Of a DNA stretch of 64,000 bases, positions 14,751 to 63,772 are shown one piece after another. The notes under the pieces are model-generated. The model saw only the letters and a list, made by a program, of their open reading frames with translations. It ran no database searches and was not told where the DNA came from. Position 1 is the first letter of the stretch; the number at the start of each line of letters is the position of its first letter. Both the position numbers and the translations under genes were made by a program. This DNA comes from Ylistrum balloti. Lineage: Eukaryota. The DNA lies in NCBI RefSeq assembly GCF_031769215.1, contig NW_026782326.1:779432-843431 (forward strand). Direction: 5' to 3'.

Positions 14751-16012
14751 AAGCTAGGCATCACATTTTGTGCTCTTACCTGAATATTCAGATTTCAAAT
14801 CTGTTCTGATAACCACATGCGTAAATGTTGAAACATCATTTATTAAAGTCGACCCACTCAGCCAGGCAATGACATGGCCTTCTTTGTTTATTTCAAACTC
14901 AATCTAATTCTGTATCTGTATCTAAAAAATATTTTACCACTTGAAGATGAATAACACTATATAATAATTCAACAGTATTAAAATATGAAAATCAGTTGGT
15001 TCCTGCAACAAATATTTTTTTCGAAAAAATATTTTATTAACTGTAAGTATGTTAACATAACAACCACTTACTATCAGTGGTTTCCATGGCTACAGGATTC
15101 AAACTAATAAAATAATTCTACTTCTTGTCTTGTCAAGAAAAAAGACCAAGAAAAATATTCTGAATTTCAAAATTTCTTGCTTGCCTGTATTTGCTGGTCC
15201 ATTCCAAACTTTTAAAGTTGCTGTCATATTCACAGACAAGTCTGTCTTCTCATGGTCATCACGTATCAATGTTTTTGGTGGAAATGGAATCCTCTCCATT
15301 AAATCTATAGAGGATAAAATAATCTGCTCAGTTGTTCACGATTAGTAGCAATGCATAACAAAAGTTGACAGACGCTGGACCAACAAATAATGGATGCCAC
15401 AGTATAGCTGACTTGGCCCTTTGAGCCAGGTGAGCTAATAACAGGAAGCTTTTGATGGTGCTTAAAGATATACACGGTATATAAACCAAGTCTACCATCA
15501 ACTAAATCAGTAAAAAAAACTGAGGGAGAGGATCTACAGATAAAAAATGTAAAACACACAGTAAAAATGTCACAGGTTGAACAATATAATATGTTTTGAT
15601 GATAAAATATACCTAAGTTCAGATGAAAACTAAAAAGGAAAATGTCAACAAGACTAAAATGCATAAAAAAGAAATACAAAAGGCATTAACTCAAAGCAGA
15701 ATATTGTAGAATAAAGTTGTTGTTTAAATAAACAGAATTTCATGCCATACCAAAGAAATCTTTAAAAAAAAACTGAGGGAAGGAAATATCCAGAAAAGAT
15801 AAAAAATTGCAAAAAAAAAAAAAGAAAAAAACCAAATCAAAGGGCAATAACAATTTGAAAAAATTTCATGAATCAAAATTCAAAAAGGTGACAAAATAAG
15901 AATTAGAGCCAACGTCAGTATCAGGTAGGTGATTTCTTCAGTGGGGTGCTTCATTTGAGCTTGGATACCTAAAGGTATGCAGGGCGATTAACGAAATAAT
16001 AAATACGAGACC

Positions 16013-17023
16013 TTAGAAATTAATCACAAGAACAAGTATCACCAGTAAGTGCATACTTTACTTAATTGTCTTCACTAGTTTCGCCTCCGGTCGAGGCTTC
16101 ATCAGGACAATTTTTTACACATTTCAGCCCTCTGAAGTAGTTTTTTCGGGGTTCAGAATTAATTGTGATGTATTACATAAATGGACAATAATACAAGGGC
16201 ATATATACCAAAAAGTTGACGTTATGTTAGCTAGATTATAGTGTTAACACAGTTCAAAACAAATCATTAAAGTCCAACATAAATAAAAAAGAGTTTGTTG
16301 TCTATCATATGCTGGTCTTTATTGGTGTTAATTTAGGCATACAGTGACATCAGACACTGAAACATAGGCCAGCTTCTTATAGTCCACTACTGCTTCAGTT
16401 AATTCTGTACTACTGATGGTTCTGATGGATGTGTGGTCTGAAAATGAGTCACTCAACAACAGGTCTTCTTTCAATAAGTCAAAAGGGCAACTCTCTTCAA
16501 TTGGAGCGGGTTCTGGGTTGACTTCTTTTGTGTGCGGCCCCGGGTGATTCCTCCCCTTGGTTGATACCATCCTGAACTTAGCCTTTTCCAGTTGGTGTTT
16601 GGTTAGCATTTCTAACAGCCTTTCCCATTGATCAGGTATAGCTGCTTCATTCCAATCATCATCTTTGAAGACTGCGGGTTCAATACTATAGAATGGGTGT
16701 TTTTCTTTAAGGTGGTGATGGTAGCAATCTCTCCTTCCGAAGGTACATTTGTAAATCTTACACTGGAACCTAGTGTTAGAGTGCATGCTATGTATCCTAC
16801 TAACATGTCTCCATAATGAACTTAAGTAAGCAAGTCTCTTACTGCATAAGATGCATGGCATCTTGATTTGCCCTGCATCCTGTCTAAGGTGCTTAGCAAG
16901 TGTGGTCTTGGTCTTGGGCATATCTAAGAGATTATATTCATGCCCCATGGTTTCTGTGTGCATACAATTAAGTAAAGCACCCACTTACTGATGACACTTG
17001 TTCTTGTTTCAATTAATTTCTAA
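16013..17023. mobile_element. TIR-bounded ~1 kb cassette (nonautonomous DNA-transposon/MITE-like) carrying a C2H2 ORF
   Basis: 16013-16070 (ttagaaattaatcacaagaacaagtatcaccagtaagtgcatactttacttaattgt) is the reverse complement (~85% id, one 5-bp indel) of 16963-17023 (acaattaagtaaagcacccacttactgatgacacttgttcttgtttcaattaatttctaa); termini TTAGAAATTAAT...ATTAATTTCTAA. Confidence 0.55.
16328..16948 (-). CDS. intronless small C2H2 zinc-finger protein (206 aa from ATG; CILCSKRLAYLSSLWRHVSRIH and CKIYKCTFGRRDCYHHHLKEKH fingers)
   Basis: first ATG in strong Kozak context aaaccATGg (16948-16946); ORF-track start at 16984 is GTG; stop TAA 16330-16328 followed within 10 nt by AATAAA on minus strand (~16321-16316); CX2CX12HX4H spacing seen directly. 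Confidence 0.5.
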   Translation of the reverse strand: MGHEYNLLDMPKTKTTLAKHLRQDAGQIKMPCILCSKRLAYLSSLWRHVSRIHSMHSNTRFQCKIYKCTFGRRDCYHHHLKEKHPFYSIEPAVFKDDDWNEAAIPDQWERLLEMLTKHQLEKAKFRMVSTKGRNHPGPHTKEVNPEPAPIEESCPFDLLKEDLLLSDSFSDHTSIRTISSTELTEAVVDYKKLAYVSVSDVTVCLN

Positions 17024-17870
17024 TTTCATAACTATTGGTACAATGTTAATACATCCTCATAGACAGATACATAACTATAGGTACAATGTTAATACATCCT
17101 TACAGACAGATACATAACTATAGGTGCAATGTTACTACATCCTTACAGACGGATACATAACTATTGGTACAATGTTAATACATCATTATAGACAGATACA
17201 TAACTATAGGTACAATGTTAATACATTATTATATACAGATATGTAACTATAGGTACAATGTTAATACATCATTATAGACAGATACGTAACTATAGGTACA
17301 ATGTTAATACATCCTTATAGACAGATACATAACTATAGGTACAATGTTAATACATCCTCATAGACAGATACATAACTATAGGTACAATGTTAAAACATCC
17401 TCATAGACAGATACATAATTATAGGTACAATGTTAATACATCATTATAGACAGATACGTAACTATAGGTACAATGTTAATACATCATTATAGACAGATAC
17501 GTAACTATAGGTACAATGTTAATACATCCTGATAGACAGATACATAACTATTGGTACAATGTTAATACATCCTCATAGACAGATACATAACTATAGGTAC
17601 AATGTTAAAACATCCTCATAGACAGATACATAACTATAGGTACAATGTTAATACATCCTCATAGACAGATAGGTAACTATAGGTACAATGTTAATACATC
17701 CACATAGACAGATACATAACTATAGGTACAATGTTAATACATCCTCATAGACAGATACATAACTATAGGTACAATGTTAATACATCCTTATAGACAGATA
17801 CATAACTATAGGTACAATGTTAACATAATGCATCCTTATAGACATTAGTTTCAAATAACTATTCAATTGA
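17010..17870. repeat. ~40-bp tandem repeat x ~21 (tacataactataggtacaatgttaatacatcctcatagacaga)
   Basis: array starts immediately at right TIR edge. Confidence 0.9.
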
Positions 17871-17941
17871 AAATAAGACACTTTTACATTAAGATCTTTT
17901 GTAGTCTATGCTGTCAAGAAGAATACAAAATATCTGAAGTT

Positions 17942-20900
17942 TTAAATTTTCTTACCTGTTCCTGATGATCTGATCTCTTTCTTCTCTTCTTCACCATACT
18001 TTCTCCATTTTTTTATTTTGTCTGAAAGGCCTTGATCAGTTTTCCTTCTTGTACTAGCCTTATTTTTACTTTTCCAAAGATTGCAATGATAATTTTTTCT
18101 GCTGTGTTCATCATATCTGGACTTAATTTCATGGTCTTTTCCAAAACCACTTAAACCTTCGCCAGTGTTTCCATCTTCCTTTTGTTCTCTTTTTCTCTGA
18201 TTTCTTGGACTCAAACTTCTGCTGAAACTCCCCTGCCTGCCTCGACTCAAACTCCTGCTGAACTTCCTCCGATAACCTCGACTCAGACTTCTGCTGAAAC
18301 TCCTCGGCCTACCTCGACTCAAACTTCTGCTGCAACTCCTATGCCTACCTCGACTCAAACTTCTGCTGAACTTCCTACGATAACCGCGATTCAGACTTCT
18401 TCTGAAACTCCTCCGCCTACCTCGACTCAGACTTCTGCTGAAACTCCTCCGCCTACCTCGACTCAGATGTCTGCTGAACTTCCTCTGCCTGTCTCGACTC
18501 AAACTTCTGCTGAAACTTCTCCGCCTGCCTCGACTCAAACTTCTTCTGAAACTTCTCCGCCTGCCTCGACTTAGACTTCTGATGAAACTTCTCTGCCGGT
18601 CTCGACTCAAACTTCTGCTGAAACTTCTTCGCCTGCCTCGACTCAGACTTCTGCTGAAACTCCTCCGCCTACCTCGACTCAGACGTCTGCTGAACTTCCT
18701 CTGCCTGCCTCGACTCAAACTTCTGCTGAAACTTCTCCGCCTGCCTCGACTCAAACTTCTGCTGAAACTTCTCCGCCTGCCTCGACTTAGACTTCTGATG
18801 AAACTTCTCTGCCAGTCTCGACTCAAACTTCTGCTGAAACTTCTCCGCCTGCCTCGACTCAAACTTCTGCTGAAACTTCTCCGCCTGCCTCGACTCAAAC
18901 TTCTGCTGAAACTTCTCCGCCTGCCTCGACTTAGACTTCTGATGAAACTTCTCTGCCGGTCTCGACTCAAACTTCTGCTGAAACTTCTCCGCCTGCCTCG
19001 ACTTAGTCTTCTGATGAAACTTCTCTGCCTATCTCTACTTCTGCTTCGACTTCTACCGCCACCACCACCACTACCTTCGGCTATATGCATCGTTCCATCA
19101 ATAGACTTCAATGACCTTAACATTTCTTCACTTTTTTCAACACGACCCTTGTCATTCATAATGCTTAATTCAGAATACTTTCTTTGTGGCTGTAAAGGCA
19201 GGGCCTTTTGTGTTAAACTTGATGGTCTGGTGTGACTTTCTGTCCTTATATTTGTCTTTGGGTCATATATTGCATAATCCATGTTTATATTTTGCAAGTA
19301 TGTAGATGCTGCTGTCTGACACTTATTTGAAAAAGGATCAACTTTAAATTCACTAACAATAGGGACATCTCTAAAACCAACATTATCTCTTGCATCCTTA
19401 AAACCATCACCATGACCACCTCTGCCTCCCCTGAAACCATCACCATGACCACCTCTGCCTCCCCTAAAACCATCACCATGACCACCTCTGCCTCCCCTAA
19501 AACCATCACTTTGACCACCTCTGCCTCCCCTAAAACCATCACTTTGACCACCTCTGCCTCCCCTAAAACCATCACTTTGACCACCTCTGCCTCCCCTAAA
19601 ACCATCACCATGACCACCTCTGCCTCCCCTAAAACCATCACCATGACCACTTCTGCCTCCCCTGAAACCATCACTTTGACCACCTCTGCCTCCCCTAAAA
19701 CCATCACCATGACCACCTCTGCCTCCCCTAAAACCATCATTGTGACCACATCTGCCTCCCCTAAAACCATCACTTTGACCACCTCTGCCTCTCCTAAAAC
19801 CATCACCAATACCACCTCCATCTCTCTTGAAACCATCAATGATGCTTCTAGTTGTACCATCATCCTCAGGTTCATTTTGTTTATCCATTGGTAGGGTTTG
19901 GGCTGCAAAAGAAAAACCTTGACTAGTACTGCTTCTTTGAGGTACTTGTTTCACAGTCCCAAATCCAAAACCTTGCCTTGGTACATCTCTTTGTGCTGTT
20001 GACAGTGCTGCTCCAAAAGAAAACCCTTGTCTGGTACTGCTGCTTGGAGACATTTGTTTCACAGTCCCAATGTCAGAATGTTGACTTGATTCTTGAATTT
20101 GAGCTGCTTGCGGAGGACCTCCAAAGAGAAACCATTCTCTTTGAATGTTGTTGGAAGCCATTTGATTCATAGCCCCAAAGTTGAAAGCTTGTGATGGTAT
20201 GTTATGTGGCAATTTCTCTGTTGAAACAGGTAGATTGTTCAATGATGGCTGCATTAGGCGTTTTTGTTGAGACAGGTCTTTATTGAACAGAGATAAAGGG
20301 GCAGATGTACTAGACAACACTTCTAGTTGAGAACTTTGTGAGGCGGGTTTGAAAAAATTTGAAGCTTTTGGCGAAAATCCTGCAGAGGCTGGTGAATAGG
20401 CTGGAGAGGTTGGTGAATAGGATGTGGTGGTTGGTGAATAGGATGTAGTGGCTGGTGTGGCTGGTGAATAGGCTGGGGTTGTTGGTGAATAGGCTGGAGA
20501 GGTTGGTGTATAGGCTGGGGTGGCTGGTGTGGCTGGTGTATAGGCTGGAGAGGTTGGTGTATAGGCTGGGGTGGCTGGTGTGGCTGGTGAATAGGACGGG
20601 ATGGCCTGTGAATTATCCTGAGATGATGCAAACATGTCAGATATTTCAGAAGCTAACTCGAGGAAACCTGGCTCTTCAGTACCTAACTCAATTTCCATAT
20701 CTTCATCTAGATATCTTGAAATTTGAAATTCTTCACAGCTTGCATTAAATTGATCTGAACGTTGTGGTGAAGGGGGCTGTGTTATCTTTCCTCTATCATG
20801 TTGAACATATTTTGTTTCGGTCATAATATATGCAAAGTTTTCCATTGAATCATCTTTTGCTTTATCTCCATCTAAGATATTACTGTTCACCTCATTATCA

Positions 20901-22126
20901 TGATTATCATAATCAACTGCAGGTGCAGATTTTCTGGCAGCTTTTGTTGGCAACTCCTTCCTTCCTTCACTGACCTCCTCACTGTCATCATCTTCAGAAG
21001 ATTCTTCAGAGGGTAAAGAAATAGATCTATCAACTGCAGGTGCAGATTTTCTGGCAGCTTTTGTTGCCAACTGCTTCCTTGGAGCTCCCTTTCCCCCTGT
21101 TGCCCTTCGACCGTTGGCAAAAGATTTCGTCTTACATTTTAGTGACTTTTCATTTTCTTCCTCCTCATCACTGACCTCCTCACTGTCATCATCTTCAGAA
21201 GATTCTTCAGAGGGTAAAGAAATAGATCTATCAACTGCAGGTGCAAATTTTCTGGCAGCTTTTGTTGCCAACCGCTTCCTTGGAGCTCCCTTTCCCCCTG
21301 TTGCCCTTCGACCGTAGGCAGAAGATTTCGTCTTACATTTTAGTGACTTTTCATTTTCTTCCTCCTCATCACTGACCTCCTCACTGTCATCATCTTCAGA
21401 AGATTCTTCAGAGGGTAAAGAAATAGATCTATCAACTGCAGGTGCAAATTTTCTGGCAGCTTTTGTTGCCAACTGCTTCCTTGGAGCTCCCTTTCCCCCT
21501 GTTGCCCTTCGACCGTTGGCAAAAGATTTCGTCTTACATTTTAGTGACTTTTCATTTTCTTCCTCCTCATCACTGACCTCCTCACTGTCATCATCTTCAG
21601 AAGATTCTTCAGAGGGTAAAGAAATAGATCTATCAACTGCAGGTGCAAATTTTCTGGCAGCTTTTGTTGCCAACCGCTTCCTTGGAGCTCCCTTTCCCCC
21701 TGTTGCCCTTCGACCGTAGGCAGAAGATTTCGTCTTACATTTTAGTGACTTTTCATTTTCTTCCTCCTCATCACTGACCTCCTCACTGTCATCATCTTCA
21801 GAAGATTCTTCAGAGGGTAAAGAAATAGATCTATCAACTGCAGGTGCAGATTTTCTGGCAGCTTTTGTTGCCAACCGCTTCCTTGGAGCTCCCTTTCCCC
21901 CTCTTGCCCTTCGACCGTTGGCAGAAGATTTCGTCTTACATTTTAGTGACTTTTCATTTTCTTCCTCCTCATCACTGACCTCCTCACTGACCTCCTCACT
22001 GTCATCATCTTCAGAAGATTCTTCAGAGGGTAAAGAAATAGATCTGGCAGATTTTGTTGTCAACTGCTCCCTTGGAACACGTCCTGCTGATTTCAGATGT
22101 TGTTTTTGCTGCTGCTGCTGAATGTC
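17942..22126 (-). CDS. giant internal/terminal coding exon (~1394 codons) of a low-complexity modular protein (NOLC1/Nopp140-like acidic-basic repeats + CTD-like SPxY + FG + RGG + RS arrays)
   Basis: acceptor ctatttttcag|GACATTCAG (AG at 22128-22127), phase 0; uninterrupted ORF to TAA at 17944-17942; ORF-track M at 22063 is a TTG; a consensus donor ACAG|gtaaga also exists at 17955-17954 just before the stop. Confidence 0.7.
18211..19040 (-). repeat. coding 36-bp (12-aa) tandem repeat x ~23: [12 protein letters not shown] (RS/SR-domain-like)
   Basis: ..[39 protein letters not shown].. ; antisense frames give L/K and T/S/P pseudo-ORFs. Confidence 0.85.
19390..19860 (-). repeat. coding 33-bp (11-aa) tandem repeat x ~15: GFRGGRGG(H/Q)(G/S)D (RGG-box-like)
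   Basis: direct DNA periodicity ccatcaccatgaccacctctgcctcccctaaaa; protein [28 protein letters not shown]... Confidence 0.85.
20330..20600 (-). repeat. coding SP(A/T)Y(S/T)P(A/T)TPA heptad-like repeats (RNA Pol II CTD-like)
   Basis: ..[70 protein letters not shown].. Confidence 0.8.
20880..22040 (-). repeat. coding 201-bp (67-aa) tandem repeat x ~6, 402-bp higher-order: [37 protein letters not shown](Y/N)[13 protein letters not shown](R/Q)LATKAARK(F/S)APAVDR
   Basis: identical 67-aa antisense ORFs at 21114-21317 and 21516-21719 show period; alternating acidic-Ser and basic blocks as in Nopp140/treacle. Confidence 0.85.
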
Positions 22127-33966: not shown

Positions 33967-34047
33967 CTCCCCTTGTGTGATGTTAAGTTCAGTTGTTGCT
34001 ACCATGGTAGAAATCTCCATATTGTCAACTGTGGCTTTCAAGTAGGC
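33967..34047 (-). CDS. PARP4-like: PARP4-like exon AYLKATVDNMEISTMVATTELNITQGE
   Basis: acceptor ctgatttacag| (34049-34048), donor GAG|gtaagcag (33966-33965); phase 0/0; assignment to this gene by phase only. Confidence 0.45.
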
Positions 34048-35387
34048 CTGTAAATCAGATTGTATGGAATAATATAGAATTGGTTCAAAGTATAGACCAA
34101 ATTTTACGTCTCTGAAACAACATTCTATAATCTAATTTTGTTTATATTACAAGCTGATTGTTGTTTTACACAAACATATCTTTTTCCATTGAAACCCCCA
34201 TAATTTGGGATGTTGTGTTTATGCATTTCTGGGTTAAAACTGGAAAAAATGTCTTGAAAATTAAAAGAGTAACACTTATTTAACACCATTAGCCTTTCTC
34301 CCTCCAAAAGTTGACCAATATAACAAATTTAAGGACAATAACCCTTTATTCACCAGCTCTTGCTTTCACTGTTTGAGTTGATCACCATTAATAACATAAA
34401 AGTGACATACTGTTAACATATTTAACTTGGCGTAATGGAATTTTAACCCATCACTACTAAACATTTTGCAAATTAGTGCAGTCATGAATTTGAGCATCAA
34501 CAATGAAAGTTACAGCAACTGCAATTTAATCCCCTAACCAGTAAAATATATTTACAAACTGTGAATAAATTTTCACCTGAGTACAGTTCGGTACAAATCC
34601 GTATACGACCTGTCGTGACCCCGAGAACAGACTTGGGATGTGATTAGGGGCCTGTAGGGGTTGATCAGGTGTGTCCATGTGTTGTTGCCACTCAACCTTT
34701 ACACAAGAAATACCTGGACAACATGCCCTCTGAACTTGTGAGGTCATCTAAAAAGGTGAAAATCATCAACAGATCACAGTAACCATTTCCAGGTAAGAAG
34801 ATATTGCTGGAGTAAAGCTTAACACAATGTTTTCTTGTGAAAATTCTGCAATTTTCTGGCACAATTTCATTCGAGATTTGTCAGTGTTGGAACCAATGTA
34901 AAAATAACTAGGATTTTACAGGAAACAGACATGTACAACATTACAATGATATTTCCTTAATTTCACTTACCACCAATACTATACACCCACTCTATGTACC
35001 TCTAAACTTCCAAACTAACATTTACAATTTCTGCTTAGCAACGTGTTCACAGCGACCTAATTATGTGACATGTACACAAGACTATATAATTCTGCACTAG
35101 AATCGGTTTTCAATATCACTGTCTTAATTCATGATGATTGAATAATTATGAAATTGTTTCAATAACTGAATTCCCAAAAACACTTAAACAGATTGTAAAA
35201 TATAAAAGCTCCAATTTTCTTGTTTTTAACAATTTCATCACATGCTAAAAAGTTAAACTTGTCTTGGACAAAAGGAGGTCACACAGTAAAGAATTATTGG
35301 TGTTCATAGAGAAAATGAAAAAAAAGAATCTAATCTGAATCTAATACAATAAGATTTATTGGTATTGAAATGAGATGATTTACTCAC

Positions 35388-35487
35388 CCTCGCCTCCCAA
35401 ACAGAGCGTGTCTTGTAGTTGTAGTGGTAATAGGTACCACCTCCGCGTGATGCCAGGCGCCGCATCAAGTGGTGGTTCACATTTGTT
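35388..35487 (-). CDS. PARP4-like: PARP4-like exon (vWA end) (G)TNVNHHLMRRLASRGGGTYYHYNYKTRSVWEAR
   Basis: acceptor tttacttgaag| (35489-35488), donor AGG|gtgagtaa (35387-35386); phase 2 in, 0 out. Confidence 0.65.
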
Positions 35488-35723
35488 CTTCAAGTAAATA
35501 TTAGTATGAAAATTATGTTATAATCACACAAAACTCATTAACATATACATTAATATATAGCTAAGAATAATTATATTTAAATTTAATACAATGCAACTGT
35601 ATCCCACTTACACAATTATCATAAATGACAAAGTCAACATTTCATACACATTACTTATCAATTTCCATAGTTAATATTTACTTTTTTTAAAAATTTGCTT
35701 AAAAACAGGTTTTTTATATTTAC

Positions 35724-35911
35724 CCAACACCAATAGTGAAAATTCTATTTTTGGCATTTCCTTTTCTAACAGTTGACAACAGCACATCACTGTTGCTAAG
35801 GTAACCATCTGAGATGAGGAAGATACTCCTACTGCCCTCTGCTGGACTTAGAAGAAACAAGGACTCCACTGGATAATTGACATTGCTCCCTCCCATTTGT
35901 GGTTGTACACT
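35724..35911 (-). CDS. PARP4-like: PARP4-like exon (vWA) SVQPQMGGSNVNYPVESLFLLSPAEGSRSIFLISDGYLSNSDVLLSTVRKGNAKNRIFTIGVG
   Basis: IFLISDG ... RIFTIGVG = vWA beta4/beta5 signatures; acceptor tgtatttag| (35913-35912), donor GTTGG|gtaaat (35723-35722). Confidence 0.8.
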
Positions 35912-36239
35912 CTAAATACAAAACACAAATAAGATGTAATTCTATCATTGGTATATATGATAAGTATATGATATATAGCTAATTGTGTTTTTCTGCTCTG
36001 CCCTTGGAACTTCTTTGACCTTGACCATTAGAAATTATTCAACACAGCGCACATCTAAGGACTGACAAAACATCAACTCATATGCTTAGCATTTCATGTG
36101 AAATTGTTTGAAAAGATGCACTAAAAATTCTAAAATGTCACTCATGGAATCCAAGATTGAAAGTTATGCCTATAATTAGTCATTTGAAATCTTTCTTTAG
36201 AGTATAAATTCTATGTTGACTTTCTGTATAAAATATTAC

Positions 36240-36676
36240 AGGATTAAATTATGAGAATTTGTATAAAATCTTACAATTATGAATTTCATGACTTTCTGGG
36301 TAATTTTTTACCTGTATAAATTTTGTGACTTTTGTATAAAATTTTACCTGTGTAAATTCCGTGACTTTCTGAGTAATTTTTACCTGTATAAATTCTGTGA
36401 CTTTTTGTTTAAAATTTTACCTGTATAAATTCTGTGACTTTTGTATGAAATTTTACCTGTATAAATTCTGTGGCTTTTGTATGAAATTTTACCTGTATAA
36501 ATTCTGTGACTTTTTGTATGAAATTTTACCTGTATAAATTCTGTGACTTTTTGTATGAAATTTTACCTGTATAAATTCTGTGGCTTTTTGTTTAAAATTT
36601 TACCTGTATAAATTCTGTGACTTTTGTATGAAATTTTACCTGTATAAATTCTGTGGCTTTTTGTATGAAATTTTAC
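36240..36676. repeat. 37-bp tandem repeat x ~12 that reiterates the exon-end + GT donor of the 36677-36817 vWA exon (unit on minus: caaaaag(c/t)cacagaatttatacag|gtaaaatttcata)
   Basis: array is contiguous with the exon/intron boundary at 36677/36676; each unit contains a copy of CAG|GTAAAAT. Confidence 0.85.
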
Positions 36677-36817
36677 CTGTATAAATTCTGTGGCTTTTTG
36701 TACAGCCTGTTTGGTCTTTTTCTGAGGTGCAGGGAAGAGCTCTGTGTAAGATGTTCCAAAACTAAGCACATTGATAAGAGCTTTCTCTGGAAGTTTCTCT
36801 ACAGCTAGGAGGAATAA
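36677..36817 (-). CDS. PARP4-like: PARP4-like exon (vWA) LFLLAVEKLPEKALINVLSFGTSYTELFPAPQKKTKQAVQKATEFIQ
   Basis: acceptor ttaattcacag| (36819-36818; the nearer cctag acceptor would give an in-frame stop), donor CAG|gtaaaatttc (36676-36675); pattern L.LP..FN..GFGS typical of VWA5A/ITIH vWA. Confidence 0.75.
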
Positions 36818-37290
36818 CTGTGAATTAAATTATCATATATCATAACAAACACCAATTCTCCAAGCACAAACTATACTTCATTATCAAAGATTTTCACTCA
36901 ATATTTTGAACATTTTTAATTAATATTGAATTATATGAAATTTTACAATCATTTATTGCAGCATGGATATGTGGAGCTTAATGTAATTTTCTCATTATCA
37001 TTATACATCAAAATTGTTGAAACAGTAAGTGTCCAGTTTTGTTATGTGGGGTTATTGATGTATTTTAACCTACAAATTATTTGGCATAACTTCAAAAACT
37101 ACATCACAAAGCTGAAAGCTAAAATAATCCTTATCTGTAATATAATCATTCCAGTCTTTCTTATCAAAACTTTTGCCATAATTTATTTTTATCTGTTTGA
37201 ACACAAATTCTGACCTTTAATATAATTAATTTTAAAAATGTCAACTCATTTCAGTTTTGGAGTCTAATCTTGTATCTCCAAGGCACTGAC

Positions 37291-37410
37291 CTTTTTAGCA
37301 TCTCGAGTTGACTGTCCCTTCATAGAATTTGACATGTCCAACAAAAAAATGACCTCAGGGTCCTCTTCAAATTCTGCCTCAAATTCCGGGTAGAATGCCA
37401 ACATGCATGC
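37291..37410 (-). CDS. PARP4-like: PARP4-like exon (vWA start with MIDAS) ACMLAFYPEFEAEFEEDPEVIFLLDMSNSMKGQSTRDAKK
   Basis: DxSxS MIDAS motif (DMSNS) preceded by hydrophobic beta-strand VIFLL; acceptor tttaaccag| (37412-37411), donor AAG|gtcagt (37290-37289). Confidence 0.8.
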
Positions 37411-38087
37411 CTGGTTAAAAAGCAAAACAATCTAAACAAAAGAATTTTGTGAATTAATATTCCCCACTGACACAGTCTCACTAATATGCACCCATACCCA
37501 TATGAACCCATACCCAAAGTATGGAGCTCCAGTGCCTAGTATTAGAGGAGGTAGACCCCAGACAAACTTTTTCATTGCTGTAGGTCAAAGTTTCAAATGT
37601 AGTTAAGTGACCAACTTTTGATATTCAACACACCACATTACCAGGATGAACAAATGCATCCAGCATGAAGTTCCAGTGATAAGTAGTGTAAGAAATAGAG
37701 ACTGGACAAGGTAGCTGCAGGATGGAAGGACAGACAAACAACTGAATCAAATTATGACATACTACTAGTTAACCATAACTTGCACCAGAGGACAAGAAGA
37801 GTACATGCATACTGAACAATTTTCTAATGTCAAATATGTTTATAGGTAGTTGATGATTTTTCCTATGGCATCGAAACAGATATGACTGGATGGGATAATC
37901 TTTTTATTTTTAAAAAGGACATACACCTAAGCATAGTTAACATAAATTTTTGATTTCAGTATTTTAGCTCAGTTCATGCCAAGTAGAAAATTATCTTATG
38001 GAACAAAACATTCAAGATAATGTAAATGTCTCAGATAGACTTGGTCCAGTGCAGGTTTTCCCCTGATAATTTAAGCATGTGACATAC

Positions 38088-38222
38088 CTGAGTGGCCCTG
38101 CTAGGGTGTCTCTCCACCCACATGCGGGGAACATGAATTTCAGACAGACTGACCAGCAAAATAAATCCATCATCCAGTCTGGCATTCTTTGGAAGCTCCA
38201 CCACAGCCTTTGTTGCTGTTTT
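38088..38222 (-). CDS. PARP4-like: PARP4-like exon (VIT end) KTATKAVVELPKNARLDDGFILLVSLSEIHVPRMWVERHPSRATQ
   Basis: acceptor ttttatag| (38224-38223), donor CAG|gtatgtcac (38087-38086). Confidence 0.7.
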
Positions 38223-38415
38223 CTATAAAATAGCGAACAAAACAAAACGAAGGTTTCACAATTACATCTAGTACATGGTATTCTTATAGCTTAACCGGGG
38301 TAGACAAAATTGCTTGGTTTAGTCAATTTATAACGAAAAAAAATAGTAGCCATAACTATAAAAGTATCTATAATAACACCTGCAAAACACCTGATAAAAA
38401 ATAAGTATAACATAC

Positions 38416-38538
38416 CTTATATTTAACTTGATGTGTAGGGGACATCACACTGCGAATATCAAAAGGCATCTCCACAGAAACCTGCAGTGATAGGGATGAT
38501 CTGTCACCATCCTGGATCCTCAGCATGTCAAGGTCAAA
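38416..38538 (-). CDS. PARP4-like: PARP4-like exon (VIT) FDLDMLRIQDGDRSSLSLQVSVEMPFDIRSVMSPTHQVKYK
   Basis: acceptor ttttactcaaaag| (38540-38539), donor AAG|gtatgt (38415-38414); phase 0/0. Confidence 0.65.
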
Positions 38539-38810
38539 CTTTTGAGTAAAAGAAACAGTATCAATAGTTTTGAAACCTTGAGTTAATAAAACTTATCTCA
38601 GACTGAAGTACTCATGCCAAAATCAAAGCCCAGGTCTTGTCTGTAATAGACTAATAGCTAAACCATATATCAATAAAATAAGTGTTGGGGATATACAGGT
38701 ATCATTTAATACATACATGCTAAAATTCATGAAAAGTGACTTAAAATGTAAGATGCAGAATTAAGACAAGAAACTATAATAATGTGTAACCAGACAAGGC
38801 AATGACTTAC

Positions 38811-38976
38811 CTGAGTTGCCTGTGCCAGTGCTGTGTCCTTGACCCAGGGAGCAACTGAGGAAGGCACTCTGAAAGCAATACTTTCCCCCTCTACCTGCAG
38901 TTCTGTGATGTAGGTAATCTTGATCAGTACATCAGATTTTGGTGGCAGGTTACCAACACTGACTGTAAAAACATCC
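38811..38976 (-). CDS. PARP4-like: PARP4-like exon (VIT) DVFTVSVGNLPPK[frameshift]SDVLIKITYITELQVEGESIAFRVPSSVAPWVKDTALAQATQ
   Basis: acceptor ttgtccaacag| (38978-38977), donor CAG|gtaagtc (38810-38809); 166 nt, not a multiple of 3: A5 run 38947-38951 (plus ttttt) shifts frame between conserved FTVSVGNLPP and KSDVLIKITYITEL; alternative acceptor tgtttttacag| at 38964 gives an in-frame 153-nt exon. Confidence 0.55.
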
Positions 38977-38999
38977 TGTTGGACAAAAAGTCAATGTCA

Positions 39000-41900
39000 T
39001 GAAGACAAGGAGTCAATTTACTGCAGGCAAGAACTCAATCTACTGAAGACAAGGAGTCATTCTACTGAAGGCAAGAACTCAATCTACTGAAGACAAGGAG
39101 TCATTCTACTGAAGACAAGGAGTCATTCTAGTGAAGACAAGGAGTCATTCTACTGAAGACAAGGAGTCAATTTACTGCAGGCAAGAACTCAATCTACTGA
39201 AGACAAGGAGTCATTCTACTGCAGGCAAGAACTCAATCTACTGAAGACAAGGAGTCATTCTACTGCAGGCAAGAACTCAATCTACTGAAGACAAGGAGTC
39301 ATTCTACTGCAGGCAAGAACTCAATCTACTGAAGACAAGGAGTCATTCCACTGCAGGCAAGAACTCAATCTACTGAAGACAAGGAGTCATTCTACTGAAG
39401 ACAAGGAGTCATTCTAGTGAAGACAAGGAGTCATTCTACTGAAGACAAGGAGGCAATCTACTGAAGACAAGGAGTCATTCTACTGAAGACAAGGAGGCAA
39501 TCTACTGAAGACAAGGAGTCATTCTACTGCAGGCAAGAACTCAATCTACTGAAGACAAGGAGTCATTCCACTGCAGGCAAGAACTCAATCTACTGAAGAC
39601 AAGGAGTCATTCTACTGCAGGCAAGAACTCAATCTACTGAAGACAAGGAGTCATTCTACTGCAGGCAAGAAATCAATCTACTGAAGACAAGGAGTCATTC
39701 TACTGAAGACAAGGAGTCATTCTACTGCAGGCAAGAACTCAATCTACTGAAGACAAGGAGTCATTCCACTGCAGGCAAGAACTCAATCTACTGAAGACAA
39801 GGAGTCAATCTACTGAAGACAAGGAGTCATTCTACTGCAGGCAAGAACTCAATCTCATGAAGACAAGGAGTCATTCTACTGCAGGCAAGAACTCAATCTC
39901 ATGAAGACAAGGAGTCATTCTACTGCAGGCAAGAACTCAATCTACTGAAGACAAGGAGTCATTCTACTGCAGGCAAAAACTCAATCTACTGAAGACAAGG
40001 AGTCATTCTACTGAAGACAAGGAGTCATTCTAGTGAAGACAAGGAGTCATTCTACTGAAGACAAGGAGGCAATCTACTGAAGACAAGGAGTCATTCTACT
40101 GAAGACAAGGAGGCAATCTACTGAAGACAAGGAGTCATTCTACTGCAGGCAAGAACTCAATCTACTGAAGACAAGGAGTCATTCCACTGCAATAAAGAAC
40201 TCAATCTACTGAAGACAAGGAGTCATTCTACTGAAGACAAGGAGTCATTCTACTGCAGGCAAGACCTCAATCTACTGCAGGCAAGGAGTCATTCTACTGA
40301 AGACAAGGAGTCATTCTACTGCAGGCAAGGAGTCATTCTACTGCAGGCAAGAACTCAATCTACTGAAGACAAGGAGTCATTCTACTGCAGGCAAGAACTC
40401 AATCTACTGAAGACAAGGAGTCATTCTACTGAAGACAAGGAGTCATTCTAGTGAAGACAAGGAGTCATTCTACTGAAGACAAGGAGTCATTCTACTGCAG
40501 GCAAGAACTCAGTCTACTGAAGACAAGGAGTCATTCTACTGCAGGCAAGAACTCAATCTACTGAAGACAAGGAGTCATTCTACTGCAGGCAAGAACTCAA
40601 TCTACTGAAGACAAGGAGTCATTCTACTGAAGACAAGGAGTCATTCTACTGAAGACAAGGAGTCATTCTACTGCAGGCAAGAACTCAATCTACTGAAGAC
40701 AAGGAGTCATTCCACTGCAGGCAAGAACTCAATCTACTGAAGACAAGGAGTCATTCTACTGAAGACAAGGAGTCATTCTACTGCAGGCAAGAACTCAATC
40801 TACTGCAGGCAAGGAGTCATTCTACTGAAGACAAGGAGTCATTCTACTGCAGGCAAGAACTCAATCTACTGAAGACAAGGAGTCATTCTACTGAAGACAA
40901 TGAGTCATTCTACTGAAGACAAGGAGTCATTCTAGTGAAGACAAGGAGGCATTCTACTGAAGACAAGGAGGCAATCTACTGAAGACAAGGAGTCATTCTA
41001 CTGAAGACAAGGAGTCATTCTAGTGAAGACAAGGAGGCAATCTACTGAAGACAAGGAGTCATTCTACTGCAGGCAAGAACTCAATCTACTGCAGACAAGG
41101 AGTCAATCTACTGAAGACAAGGAGTCATTCTACTGCAGGCAAGAACACAATCTACTGAAGACAAGGAGTCATTCTACTGCAGGCAAGAACTCAATCTACT
41201 GAAGACAAGGAGTCATTCTACTGCAGGCAAGAACTCAATCTACTGAAGACAAGGAGTCATTCTACTGCAGGCAAGAACTCAATCTACTGAAGACAAGGAG
41301 TCATTCTACTGCAGGCAAGAACTCAATCTACTGCAGGCAAGGAGTCATTCTACTGAAGACAAGGAGTCATTCTACTGCAGGCAAGAACTCAATCTACTGA
41401 AGACAAGGAGTCATTCTACTGAAGACAATGAGTCATTCTACTGAAGACAAGGAGTCATTCTAGTGAAGACAAGGAGTCATTCTACTGAAGACAAGGAGGC
41501 AATCTACTGAAGACAAGGAGTCATTCTACTGCAGGCAAGAACACAATCTACTGAAGACAAGGAGTCATTCTACTGCAGGCAAGAACTCAATCTACTGAAG
41601 ACAAGGAGTCATTCTACTGCAGGCAAGAACTCAATCTACTGAAGACAAGGAGTCATTCTACTGCAGGCAAGAACTCAATCTACTGAAGACAAGGAGTCAT
41701 TCTACTGCAGGCAAGAACTCAATCTACTGAAGACAAGGAGTCATTCTACTGCAGGCAAGAACTCAATCTACTGAAGACAAGGAGTCATTCTACTGCAGAC
41801 AAGAACTCAATCTACTGAAGACAAGGAGTCATTCTACTGAAGACAAGGAGGCAATCTACTGCAGGCAAGAACTCAATCTACTGAAGACAAGGAGTCATTC

Positions 41901-42790
41901 TACTGCAGGCAAGAACTCAATCTACTGAAGACAAGGAGTCATTCTACTGAAGACAAGGAGTCATTCTAATGAAGACAAGGAGTCATTCTACTGAAGACAA
42001 GGAGGCAATCTACTGAAGACAAGGAGTCAATCTATTGCAGGCAAGAACTCAATCTACTGAAGACAAGGAGTCATTCTACTGAAGACAAGGAGTCATTCTA
42101 CTGCAGGCAAGACCTCAATCTACTGCAGGCAAGGAGTCATTCTACTGAAGACAAGGAGTCATTCTACTGCAGGCAAGGAGTCATTCTACTGCAGGCAAGA
42201 ACTCAATCTACTGAAGACAAGGAGTCATTCTACTGCAGGCAAGAACTCAATCTACTGAAGACAAAGAGTCATTCTACTGAAGACAAGGAGTCATTCTAGT
42301 GAAGACAAGGAGTCATTCTACTGAAGACAAGGAGTCATTCTACTGCAGGCAAGAACTCAGTCTACTGAAGACAAGGAGTCATTCTACTGCAGGCAAGAAC
42401 TCAATCTACTGAAGACAAGGAGTCATTCCACTGCAGGCAAGAACTCAATCTACTGAAGACAAGGAGTCAATCTACTGAAGACAAGGAGTCATTCTACTGC
42501 AGGCAAGAACTCAATCTACTGAAGACAAGGAGTCATTCTACTGAAGACAAGGAGTCATTCTAGTGAAGACAAGGAGTCATTCTACTGAAGACAAGGAGGC
42601 AATCTACTGAAGACAAGGAGTCAATCTACTGCAGGCAAGAACTCAATCTACTGAAGACAAGGAGTCATTCTACTGAAGACAAGGAGTCATTCTAGTGAAG
42701 ACAAGGAGTCATTCTACTGAAGACAAGGAGTCAATCTACTGAAGACAAGGAGTCATTCTACTGAAGACAAGGAGTCAATCTACTGAAGAT
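39000..42790. repeat. 3.8-kb intronic minisatellite built from two 22-bp subunits (ctgaagacaaggagtcattcta / ctgcaggcaagaactcaatcta) in irregular alternation
   Basis: continuous periodicity between VIT exons 43552 and 38976. Confidence 0.9.
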
Positions 42791-43551
42791 ATGGAGTACT
42801 GAAAACAATGAGTCAGCATAATAAAAGATGAAGTACAACCTATTGAGGACAAAAAACAGCCAACTGAAAGATCTCTACTTTAAGCTAAACAGAGATTATA
42901 GAGTATAGAATTTAACTTCTACTTATTGGTTCTATATAAGATTGATGCTTTCCCTACTCTTTCTTCTATACACAGTTTTATCCATGATTTTTTAGGATAT
43001 TGAGTCCTGTTTTTTCCTCTAGAATCAGCTCAAATTTTGATATCCCACTATATCTCTTACTATTAAGACCAACCTAAAGTTCGGAAATGGTGTTCTGAAC
43101 TTGCCTTAAACAATCCTACAAAAATCACAGCCTCAGAGTATAACTATTGAATGAAGCATGTGATTACATAGTTCAACCAGAGAAATGTTAATACTAATTT
43201 TGGGAAGCATCCGTCAACTACTTTCAGGCTAAATGGACGTATGTCAATATTTTCCCATAGTCTGGTCTCAAAACTGAACTGCCAATAAAAAAGTGTTATA
43301 AAGGAATATTCCATGTATTTGATTCTGTTTTCTTTTCTTTTTGCAATTGTATCATAATTGGAATCTACATCACACCTCAAAATATCTCATTGTACACAAG
43401 AAACAAGTCACAAATTTTTCATTGTCAAGTCATGATAATCTATCAACCTGTTGAATGTGAAGCAGAACATTTTCTTTTTCTTTCACTGTCAAGCTCCTCT
43501 TGCTGAGAAAACAGCTGGATCAATCAACTTAAATGTGATATATCAACTTAC

Positions 43552-62339: not shown

Positions 62340-62410
62340 TCACCTCGCGTCACAAACTATGGAACGTCACAATTCCTAGTACGTCATTGTCTTTTGTGAC
62401 GTCATGTTTA
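62340..62410 (+). promoter_or_regulatory. cluster of CRE/half-CRE sites (cgcgtcac, aacgtcac, tacgtcat, TGACGTCA at 62397-62404) in CpG-rich putative promoter/5'UTR
   Basis: four CGTCA-containing motifs within 65 bp immediately 5' of the 62489 ATG; local CpG density much higher than window average. Confidence 0.4.
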
Positions 62411-62488
62411 GGGCTACTTGACGACGCGTTGGCTGTAGACACGCGCGAAGATAGTTTCGCTTACCGCGTCACATCTGCATGTAGGAAA

Positions 62489-63772
62489 ATGTCGGATACT
62501 GATTCTGAGTCAGAGAGCATCGAGGAGTTCCAGATCAAACGGTACTTGAACAAAGATTTCGGACAGGGAATAAAACAAGCGAAAGCTCTCCAAAACACCC
62601 ACAGTGGTATAAAGAAACAGCCCGGATTCTATAAACTTCAAGATCGAAAACATTGGTCACAAGATGGGAAATCGTACGCCGGAAAACATTGGGATGTGGA
62701 GGGTGCGGTTCCCTTAGGAAGAGCGACTCGGCGACTTACAATTCATCATATTAACGCAGAGGTTAACAAAGAGAAAGCAAGAAAGGTTACATTAGAAGAA
62801 TCTGAGAAAACGATAGCCAGTCAAACACTTAGTCCCTTGAACGAAGAATTCAATGATACGTTACGCTTCAGTGAGAAAAAGATGAAAACAAAAGAAGCGT
62901 CCATGAAAAATCAGCAAGCTAAGGTCAAGGATGATATGCAACTTCAGTTACTACATTATACACACGCTGGTTTGGTTGCCATGGAAACAGAGGAAGAACG
63001 TTATAACCAGATTAAATTGCTACGAGCAATGCTAAGCAACGTTGATAAATCTCCTAGTGTGGAAGATTTAGTCGACGCAATGGCCGAAACAAACCAGAAA
63101 AGGAGTTACATCAACAGGGATTTAGAGGAAGCGTTCGGAAAGCTTATTGAGGATGAAAGGAGTCTGGATGATGATTACCGTGAAGCCATGATGGAAATGC
63201 TAGACGAGTCTCTTATAAGAGTTGTCTTAAATAAGGATAGGGACATAACGAAGAAGATGTCGGAGGATGAACAGAAAGAGCGAGTAATGGAACAGAACAA
63301 TTTATTCAAAGACCAGCAAAGAGCAAAAGCTATGAAAAACTTTGAGAAGGTTCTGGCAGATATGAAGCGAATTTATCAACAAGTCCTCGACGAGGAAGAA
63401 GAAATCGAAGAACGCTACAAAGATAAAGTGAGAGAATTGAAGTTCAAGGTACAGGAGGAACTTGTTAGAAAAATCGCCGTCAAATGGGTGCAGAAAGCAT
63501 GTGCCGACGAAAAAACTCGTCGGATACAAGAATTTGAAAATGCGGGTACTACCAAAAATAAGGTCGCCTGGGAGGCTATGAAGAATTTGATGAGCAGAGT
63601 ACAACGGCAAATGATCCTCTCAAAATTTGACGGCAAATGGATTGATTTTAAAGAAAAGGAGAAAGCAAAGATGCACGAGCTGTTTCCGGAAACTGACCAG
63701 GACAGGAAAATTCGAGAAATGAGAACAAAGTCACGTCGTCCATCTTGTGTTGTGAGAGGTGGTGATGACTGA
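62489..63772 (+). CDS. intronless coiled-coil/charged protein, 427 aa (MSDTDSESESIEEFQIKRYLNKDF... ...RRPSCVVRGGDD*)
   Basis: first in-frame ATG (gaaaATGt) at 62489 (ORF-track start at 62387 is TTG); uninterrupted to TGA 63770-63772; AATAAA 63850-63855; E/K/R-rich heptad-like segments (EEEEIEERYKDKVRELKFKVQEELVRK). Confidence 0.6.
   Translation: MSDTDSESESIEEFQIKRYLNKDFGQGIKQAKALQNTHSGIKKQPGFYKLQDRKHWSQDGKSYAGKHWDVEGAVPLGRATRRLTIHHINAEVNKEKARKVTLEESEKTIASQTLSPLNEEFNDTLRFSEKKMKTKEASMKNQQAKVKDDMQLQLLHYTHAGLVAMETEEERYNQIKLLRAMLSNVDKSPSVEDLVDAMAETNQKRSYINRDLEEAFGKLIEDERSLDDDYREAMMEMLDESLIRVVLNKDRDITKKMSEDEQKERVMEQNNLFKDQQRAKAMKNFEKVLADMKRIYQQVLDEEEEIEERYKDKVRELKFKVQEELVRKIAVKWVQKACADEKTRRIQEFENAGTTKNKVAWEAMKNLMSRVQRQMILSKFDGKWIDFKEKEKAKMHELFPETDQDRKIREMRTKSRRPSCVVRGGDD

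Follow-up and report, generated by a model that had tools for sequence, protein, structure and literature searches.

A minisatellite across an exon-intron boundary reiterates the 5' splice site of a vWA exon in a mollusc PARP4-like gene

An intron that opens with many copies of its own 5' splice site raises the questions of how such an arrangement arose, which of the copies is used, and what the use of any other copy would mean for the encoded protein. This arrangement is found in a 64,000-nucleotide stretch of the Ylistrum balloti genome (RefSeq assembly GCF_031769215.1, contig NW_026782326.1, positions 779,432 to 843,431), referred to here as the window, for which a first-pass annotation had described a tandem array repeating the end of a vWA exon together with its GT donor. 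The annotation saw in this array either a source of splicing noise or isoforms or the outcome of replication slippage seeded at a splice junction. Positions given below are those of the window, and cuts between exon and intron are marked by a slash.

The array lies in a gene whose local reading frame can be reconstructed. Four minus-strand exons (37410-37291, 36817-36677, 35911-35724 and 35487-35388) join at canonical AG/GT sites into an open segment of 183 amino acids, with hits to Pfam VWA_3 (E=6e-27) and, in human PARP4, to residues 855-1036 (E=2e-33). The first-pass annotation placed the vWA exon correctly at 36677-36817 and also identified its domain correctly. The PARP4-like proteins of Solemya velum (57% identical) and Sinanodonta woodiana (48%) provide about 27 colinear exon-sized matches from 53594 down to 21041, and a tblastn search with residues 2-1099 of the Solemya protein, which contains BRCT, PARP, VIT and VWA Pfam domains, returned 21 colinear minus-strand matches from 53594 to 34562. 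Judged by these matches, the window holds most of a predicted mollusc PARP4 (vault PARP)-like gene of about 27 exons. A word-index search for a same-species protein corresponding to the 183-residue vWA segment gave one Solemya velum protein only (59% identical over 34% of the query), and two metagenome scans, one with the 5' edge of the array and one with the unit core, gave no second copy of the locus. The exons and the intron that surround the array are the following.

37291..37410, minus strand: upstream exon at the start of the vWA domain (...DMSNSMKGQSTRDAKK), with donor AAG/GTCAGT in phase 0 (stop-free splice model; tblastn to Solemya and Sinanodonta PARP4).
36677..36817, minus strand: vWA exon of 141 nt, phase 0 at both ends (LFLLAVEKLPEKALINVLSFGTSYTELFPAPQKKTKQAVQKATEFIQ) (Pfam VWA_3; human PARP4; orthologous Solemya exon).
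35912..36676, minus strand: intron of 765 nt, with acceptor tttgtatttag/AGTGTA.
35724..35911, minus strand: downstream exon (SVQPQMGGSNVNYPVESL...IGVG), joined in phase 0 to the authentic donor (splice model, human PARP4, tblastn).

The array runs head-to-tail on the minus strand over about 36202-36702 with a unit of 36 or 37 bp, and represents about 475 of the 765 nt (62%) of the intron. Tandem Repeats Finder reports a period of 37 with 10.9 copies and 91% matches at 36306-36702 and, when the decayed end is included, 13.6 copies and 84% matches at 36202-36698, numbers that are read from one assembly and could be misjudged. The repetition of exon end plus donor noticed at first reading is thereby confirmed, in about a dozen copies by the repeat finder. 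On the minus strand the unit reads caaaaagccacagaatttatacag/gtaaaatttcata and is composed of 24 exonic and 13 intronic nt, a correction of the 23 and 14 originally given; the exonic part of unit 0 corresponds to the last 24 nt of the vWA exon. No difference separates units 0, 1 and 3 along their 37 nt; the first of these is the exon end with the real donor. Edit distances to unit 0 for units 0-13 are 0, 0, 4, 0, 1, 1, 1, 4, 5, 6, 8, 11, 13 and 15, and the 37 nt that precede unit 0, at distance 23, bear no relation to it. The array has a sharp 5' edge within the exon and a decaying 3' end. Units 8 and 9 resemble units 10 and 11, which suggests a higher-order repeat of two units in the distal part and fits a period-73 row in the Tandem Repeats Finder output.

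36299..36700, minus strand: well-preserved array, units 0-10, each 36 or 37 nt and all with CAG/GTAAAA (repeat finder, unit alignment).
36190..36298, minus strand: decayed distal units 11-13 (edit distances as above), in which the donor motif is lost, appearing as ATT/GTAAGA, then CCTGTAATA, then not at all.
36671..36679, minus strand: inferred authentic 5' splice site CAG/GTAAAA, cut between 36677 and 36676, with the same position and phase in Solemya and Lottia.
36306..36642, minus strand: ten pseudo-donors CAG/GTAAAA at +37 to +365 nt (motif and 19-mer matches).

The 19-mer GAATTTATACAGGTAAAAT that surrounds the donor has 8 exact occurrences, and 11 when <=3 mismatches are allowed, always inside the array, compared with 0.07 occurrences in shuffled sequence, and the full 37-mer has 6 matches in the window against 0.00 expected. 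Matching of both oligomers found no repeat unit in the window outside the array, which is thus not a member of a dispersed repeat family. Both the array and its set of 11 donors are real, far exceeding what chance would give. Open reading frames on the plus strand inside the array were considered as genes and rejected, being merely the repeat read in frame.

The motif CAG/GTAAAA is present 11 times including the real donor, with the last 'exonic' base at 36677, 36640, 36604, 36567, 36530, 36493, 36457, 36421, 36384, 36348 and 36312, and a twelfth site at 36275 has the decayed form listed above. The proposal that each unit re-creates the donor thus holds throughout units 0-10. Seven of the ten pseudo-donors sit in an exact 19-mer copy of the authentic site, and the decoys match that site from -24 to +13, exactly or nearly. 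Their predicted pairing with the 5' end of U1 (-8.3 kcal/mol) is typical for the gene, in which neighboring donors give -7.3, -6.5 and -11.2 kcal/mol. The folding analysis makes no case for RNA structure that would mask the decoys (fold z = -2.4, a centroid that is almost unpaired, no inverted repeats), and no known RNA family from Rfam was found in 34000-39000. No change affects the 9-nt donor core CAGGTAAAA in units 0-10, where the unit edges and a GCC/GTC codon do vary; decay of the core is confined to units 11-13. This invariance may reflect weak constraint or uneven mutation, and could hint at constraint on the decoys over neutrality, in a comparison of small counts among units that are not independent and that vary in A/T runs at their edges, which are prone to slippage.

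To establish whether the array was copied from the junction or the junction from the array, we compared the exon end with its homologues. The peptide encoded there, KATEFIQ, lines up with A-x-x-F-[IV]-[QK], a motif conserved in 20 or more PARP4 homologues, and its counterpart in human PARP4 is AAEFIM. The corresponding exon of the Solemya velum orthologue likewise measures 141 nt and ends in phase 0 at TTTGTACAG/GTAAGT (...GTACAG/GTAAGT) with a single donor, and the 2.7-kb orthologous intron contains no tandem repeat. In the gastropod Lottia gigantea the exon stops with CAATTTCTTAAG/GTACAC, sharing this codon boundary and phase, and coding sequence resumes at ttacag/AGATTA, again with a single donor and with no repeat in the intron at this position. 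As the junction is shared with Solemya and Lottia and the array is present in neither, the array has arisen in this lineage, copied from the junction. The exon copy has GCC at its Ala codon and most intronic copies have GTC; since this Ala is conserved in homologues, GCC represents the ancestral state and GTC a derived one. The reverse history, by which an intronic minisatellite came first and a donor shift later extended the exon into its first unit, might draw on this difference between the array consensus and the exon copy, but the GCC-coded Ala is the conserved residue, Solemya already has the 141-nt exon, and both array-free orthologues have the junction in the same position and phase. 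The orthologue comparison rules this history out, and we give it practically no credence. On this comparative evidence the exon end is the ancestral element, and the array was added in this lineage when sequence on both sides of the splice junction was duplicated in tandem. This history, together with the sharp 5' edge and the decaying 3' end, supports slippage or duplication that started from a splice junction, as the first-pass annotation had suggested for slippage. The Solemya assembly also contains a second PARP4-like vWA locus (JBHNWI010000632.1, about 15809-20110) in which exons are fused and a stop interrupts the frame after ...FQELFPMSQHKTKDKSEAC; it may be a decaying paralogue, and a further PARP/BRCT gene lies on the opposite strand. 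This second vWA locus was set aside as a candidate orthologue for its different structure and in-frame stop, and another Solemya locus was used for the comparison.

The consequences of decoy use for the reading frame follow directly from the positions of the donors. Splicing at decoys 1-10 would add 37, 73, 110, 147, 184, 220, 256, 293, 329 and 365 nt, respectively, to the exon. The expectation that extensions come in multiples of 37 nt, with every third unit in frame, fails because the real units are 36 or 37 nt long; only +147 (and +402 at the decayed twelfth site) is divisible by 3. Donors 1-3, joined to the next exon, shift the frame and lead to a stop inside that exon, and donor 4 and all later donors include a stop codon that the array itself supplies.

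36563..36565, minus strand: TAA in the read-through frame, from bases +2 to +4 (GTAA) of pseudo-donor 3.

Each of the 11 alternative joins thus results in a frameshift or a premature stop, and colinearity with PARP4 is retained with donor 0 alone. Contrary to one of the possibilities originally raised, protein isoforms cannot come from the array, as no downstream donor leaves an open frame when joined to the next exon. The read-through frame of 68 amino acids that had been offered in this context does exist (36563-36769), although only 37 of its codons are intronic, the other 31 belonging to the exon, and it ends at the TAA of pseudo-donor 3; an exact look-up of its sequence gave no match. A transcript with a premature stop and many exons behind it would be an expected target of nonsense-mediated decay.

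The anatomy of the array, the ancestry of the junction and the frame consequences are established by the results above; for the mutational mechanism, donor choice and mRNA decay we infer the following. A 37-bp segment consisting of 24 nt of vWA-exon end and 13 nt of intron would have been tandemly duplicated by replication slippage or unequal exchange, and the array would have grown to about 14 units. Unit 0 would have remained the working exon end and 5' splice site, held constant through selection on the protein, with turnover keeping the copies near it alike and the distal copies free to drift. The intron now opens with ten decoy donors behind the real one. The spliceosome would take the first donor, with the one or two behind it perhaps used at a low level, and the resulting decoy-spliced transcripts, frameshifted or stop-bearing, would be removed by nonsense-mediated decay, leaving the array as essentially neutral intron filler. 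Human precedents (F7, LMNB2 and PDGF; IFI6 and CBS), which are compared below, lead us to expect that the first donor dominates here, and by these precedents a plain intronic minisatellite with use of the first donor only appears the most likely state of this locus. Overall, we consider it probable that the array is a minisatellite with its first unit across the exon-intron boundary, duplicated in this lineage, whose first donor is used and whose decoys are unproductive and essentially neutral.

Two other readings assign the decoys a role in expression of the gene. A steady fraction of pre-mRNA might use decoys 1-2 or further ones, with degradation of the stop-bearing mRNAs, so that output of the PARP4-like protein would fall, and would fall more with more copies. 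The decoys equal the authentic site from -24 to +13, their U1 pairing lies within the range of the gene's own donors (-6.5 to -11.2 kcal/mol), every decoy product has a premature stop with many exons downstream, and IFI6 and CBS do use the two sites after the authentic one. The decoys of F7, LMNB2 and PDGF are nevertheless silent though functional, and a costly leak would favor decoy loss, yet ten persist; such copy-number-dependent unproductive splicing is in our view unlikely. It is also conceivable, if highly improbable, that selection has kept the decoy cluster as binding sites for U1 snRNP, which would help the splicing machinery to recognize a 141-nt exon that is weakly marked, or would guard against premature cleavage within the AT-rich intron. 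The invariance of the 9-nt core in units 0-10, set against roughly 12-20 changes elsewhere in the unit, would have a rough chance of 0.004-0.04 under uniform mutation, but these changes are not independent in units related by duplication, the variable positions are homopolymer runs at unit edges, and the core does decay in units 11-13. The orthologous introns of Solemya and Lottia, moreover, manage with one donor.

The remaining readings concern the removal of the array from the transcript and its reality in the genome. Each CAG/GTAAAA could in principle act as a 3' site and then as a regenerated 5' site, since AG stands directly before GTAAAA in each unit and joining of the exon end ...CAG to GTAAAA restores a donor, so that a recursive (ratchet-type) process would remove the array stepwise and leave no trace in the mRNA. 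However, no pyrimidine tract precedes the AG (cacagaatttatacag), the preceding agaatttatac being purine/A-rich, and the units are only 36-37 nt apart in an intron of only 765 nt. Introns with known recursive splicing are far longer than this, and we regard the process as barely credible here. Misassembly might have created the array or its copy number, given a single assembly in which 30% of the window consists of tandem arrays that are hard to assemble; the ordered variant pattern and smooth decay gradient are unlike collapse or stutter, the flanking sequence is unique and follows the gene colinearly, and an artefact of this kind seems extremely unlikely.

The repeat content of the window places the array in context. 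A total of 25 tandem arrays cover 19.2 kb of the window, compared with one large array in the orthologous 47-kb Solemya velum locus. Among the 25, only the 36/37-bp array overlaps an exon and only this array has a reiterated donor motif, with 11 MAGGTRAR in 501 bp versus 0.33 per kb outside arrays. Elsewhere in the gene, a 3.8-kb array of 22-bp units (39000-42797, minus strand; sense tagaatgactccttgtcttcag) occupies the intron that immediately precedes the exon starting at 38975 and contains 94 exact and 154 relaxed acceptor-like motifs of pyrimidine tract plus CAG. The true acceptor of this intron, tgacattgactttttgtccaacag/GATG (38976/38975), scores as a degenerate last 22-bp unit (8 versus a maximum of 7 among 328 other intronic AG-ending 24-mers of the gene), making this acceptor-like array a mirror image of the donor array. 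The occurrence of the 11 CAG/GTAAAA donors and the 3.8-kb acceptor-like array in one gene, along with a donor core that is the least variable part of its unit, would be consistent with splice junctions being preferred birthplaces of minisatellites in this repeat-rich mollusc genome, with the reiterated sites kept as platforms for splicing factors, a generalization that we consider very unlikely. If the decoys were selected, copy number could tune PARP4-like expression via unproductive splicing. Three long open reading frames were also observed. A 1373-aa frame (17942-22063, minus strand) is largely made up of coding repeats (201-bp x 5.3, acidic and Ser-rich; 33-bp x 12.7; 36-bp x 22.9), and a short match to Sinanodonta PARP4 residues 1863-1896 at 21133-21041 suggests that it may be a giant 3' exon of the PARP4-like gene. 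Outside that gene are a charged, coiled-coil-looking frame of 461 aa (62387-63772, plus strand) and a 218-aa frame with C2H2 zinc-finger-like motifs (16328-16984, minus strand).

The locus is of value in several respects. It illustrates how an intron may lengthen through the copying of its own 5' boundary, and it provides a non-mammalian natural test of the most-upstream-donor rule, with ten near-identical decoys, each of which would be unproductive if used. It also represents an annotation hazard, as gene predictors and read aligners can put the junction at any of 11 equivalent positions, only the first of which keeps the PARP4 frame.

The closest known counterpart is intron 7 of the human F7 gene, where a polymorphic 37-bp VNTR of 5-9 copies is associated with use of the authentic first donor only, and where mutagenesis showed the decoys to be functional but outcompeted by the site farthest upstream (Borensztajn et al. 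2006, PMC1557585). In both cases the first monomer lies across the exon-intron boundary, identical pseudo-donors follow at 37-nt spacing, and the array stands at the intron start. The two differ in that the F7 unit comprises 4 exonic and 33 intronic nt, as opposed to 24 and 13 here, and in that some F7 pseudo-sites keep the frame open whereas none do so here; use of the first site was shown by experiment in F7 and is predicted here by analogy, and the common unit length of 37 is a coincidence. LMNB2 (100-bp unit) and PDGF intron 4 (81-bp unit) likewise have an array across the junction and use the authentic donor only (PMC1557585), the behavior predicted for the present array, although their units are longer and usage was tested in human genes only. 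A different outcome is described for IFI6 (6-16) intron 2 and CBS intron 13, in which the donor is reiterated 15-25 times and the two pseudo-sites nearest the exon are used constitutively beside the authentic one (PMC1557585). Donors are reiterated behind the authentic site here as well, but use of the nearest two would be unproductive. Some in vitro work with equal sites favors the donor nearest the acceptor, and the same report notes contradictory earlier results (PMC1557585). Zhuo et al. are said to have described, in PNAS in 2007, tandem arrays that create new, alternatively used human introns; the present array is similar in being a tandem repeat with splice-site motifs that shapes intron structure, but it only adds length to an intron of ancient origin. 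As in F7 intron 7, we find a head-to-tail array with the authentic boundary in its first unit and the donor reproduced downstream. The architecture and its usual behavior were described in human genes two decades ago, so the array opens no new question; it is a non-mammalian example of the class of junction-spanning minisatellites described in several human genes.
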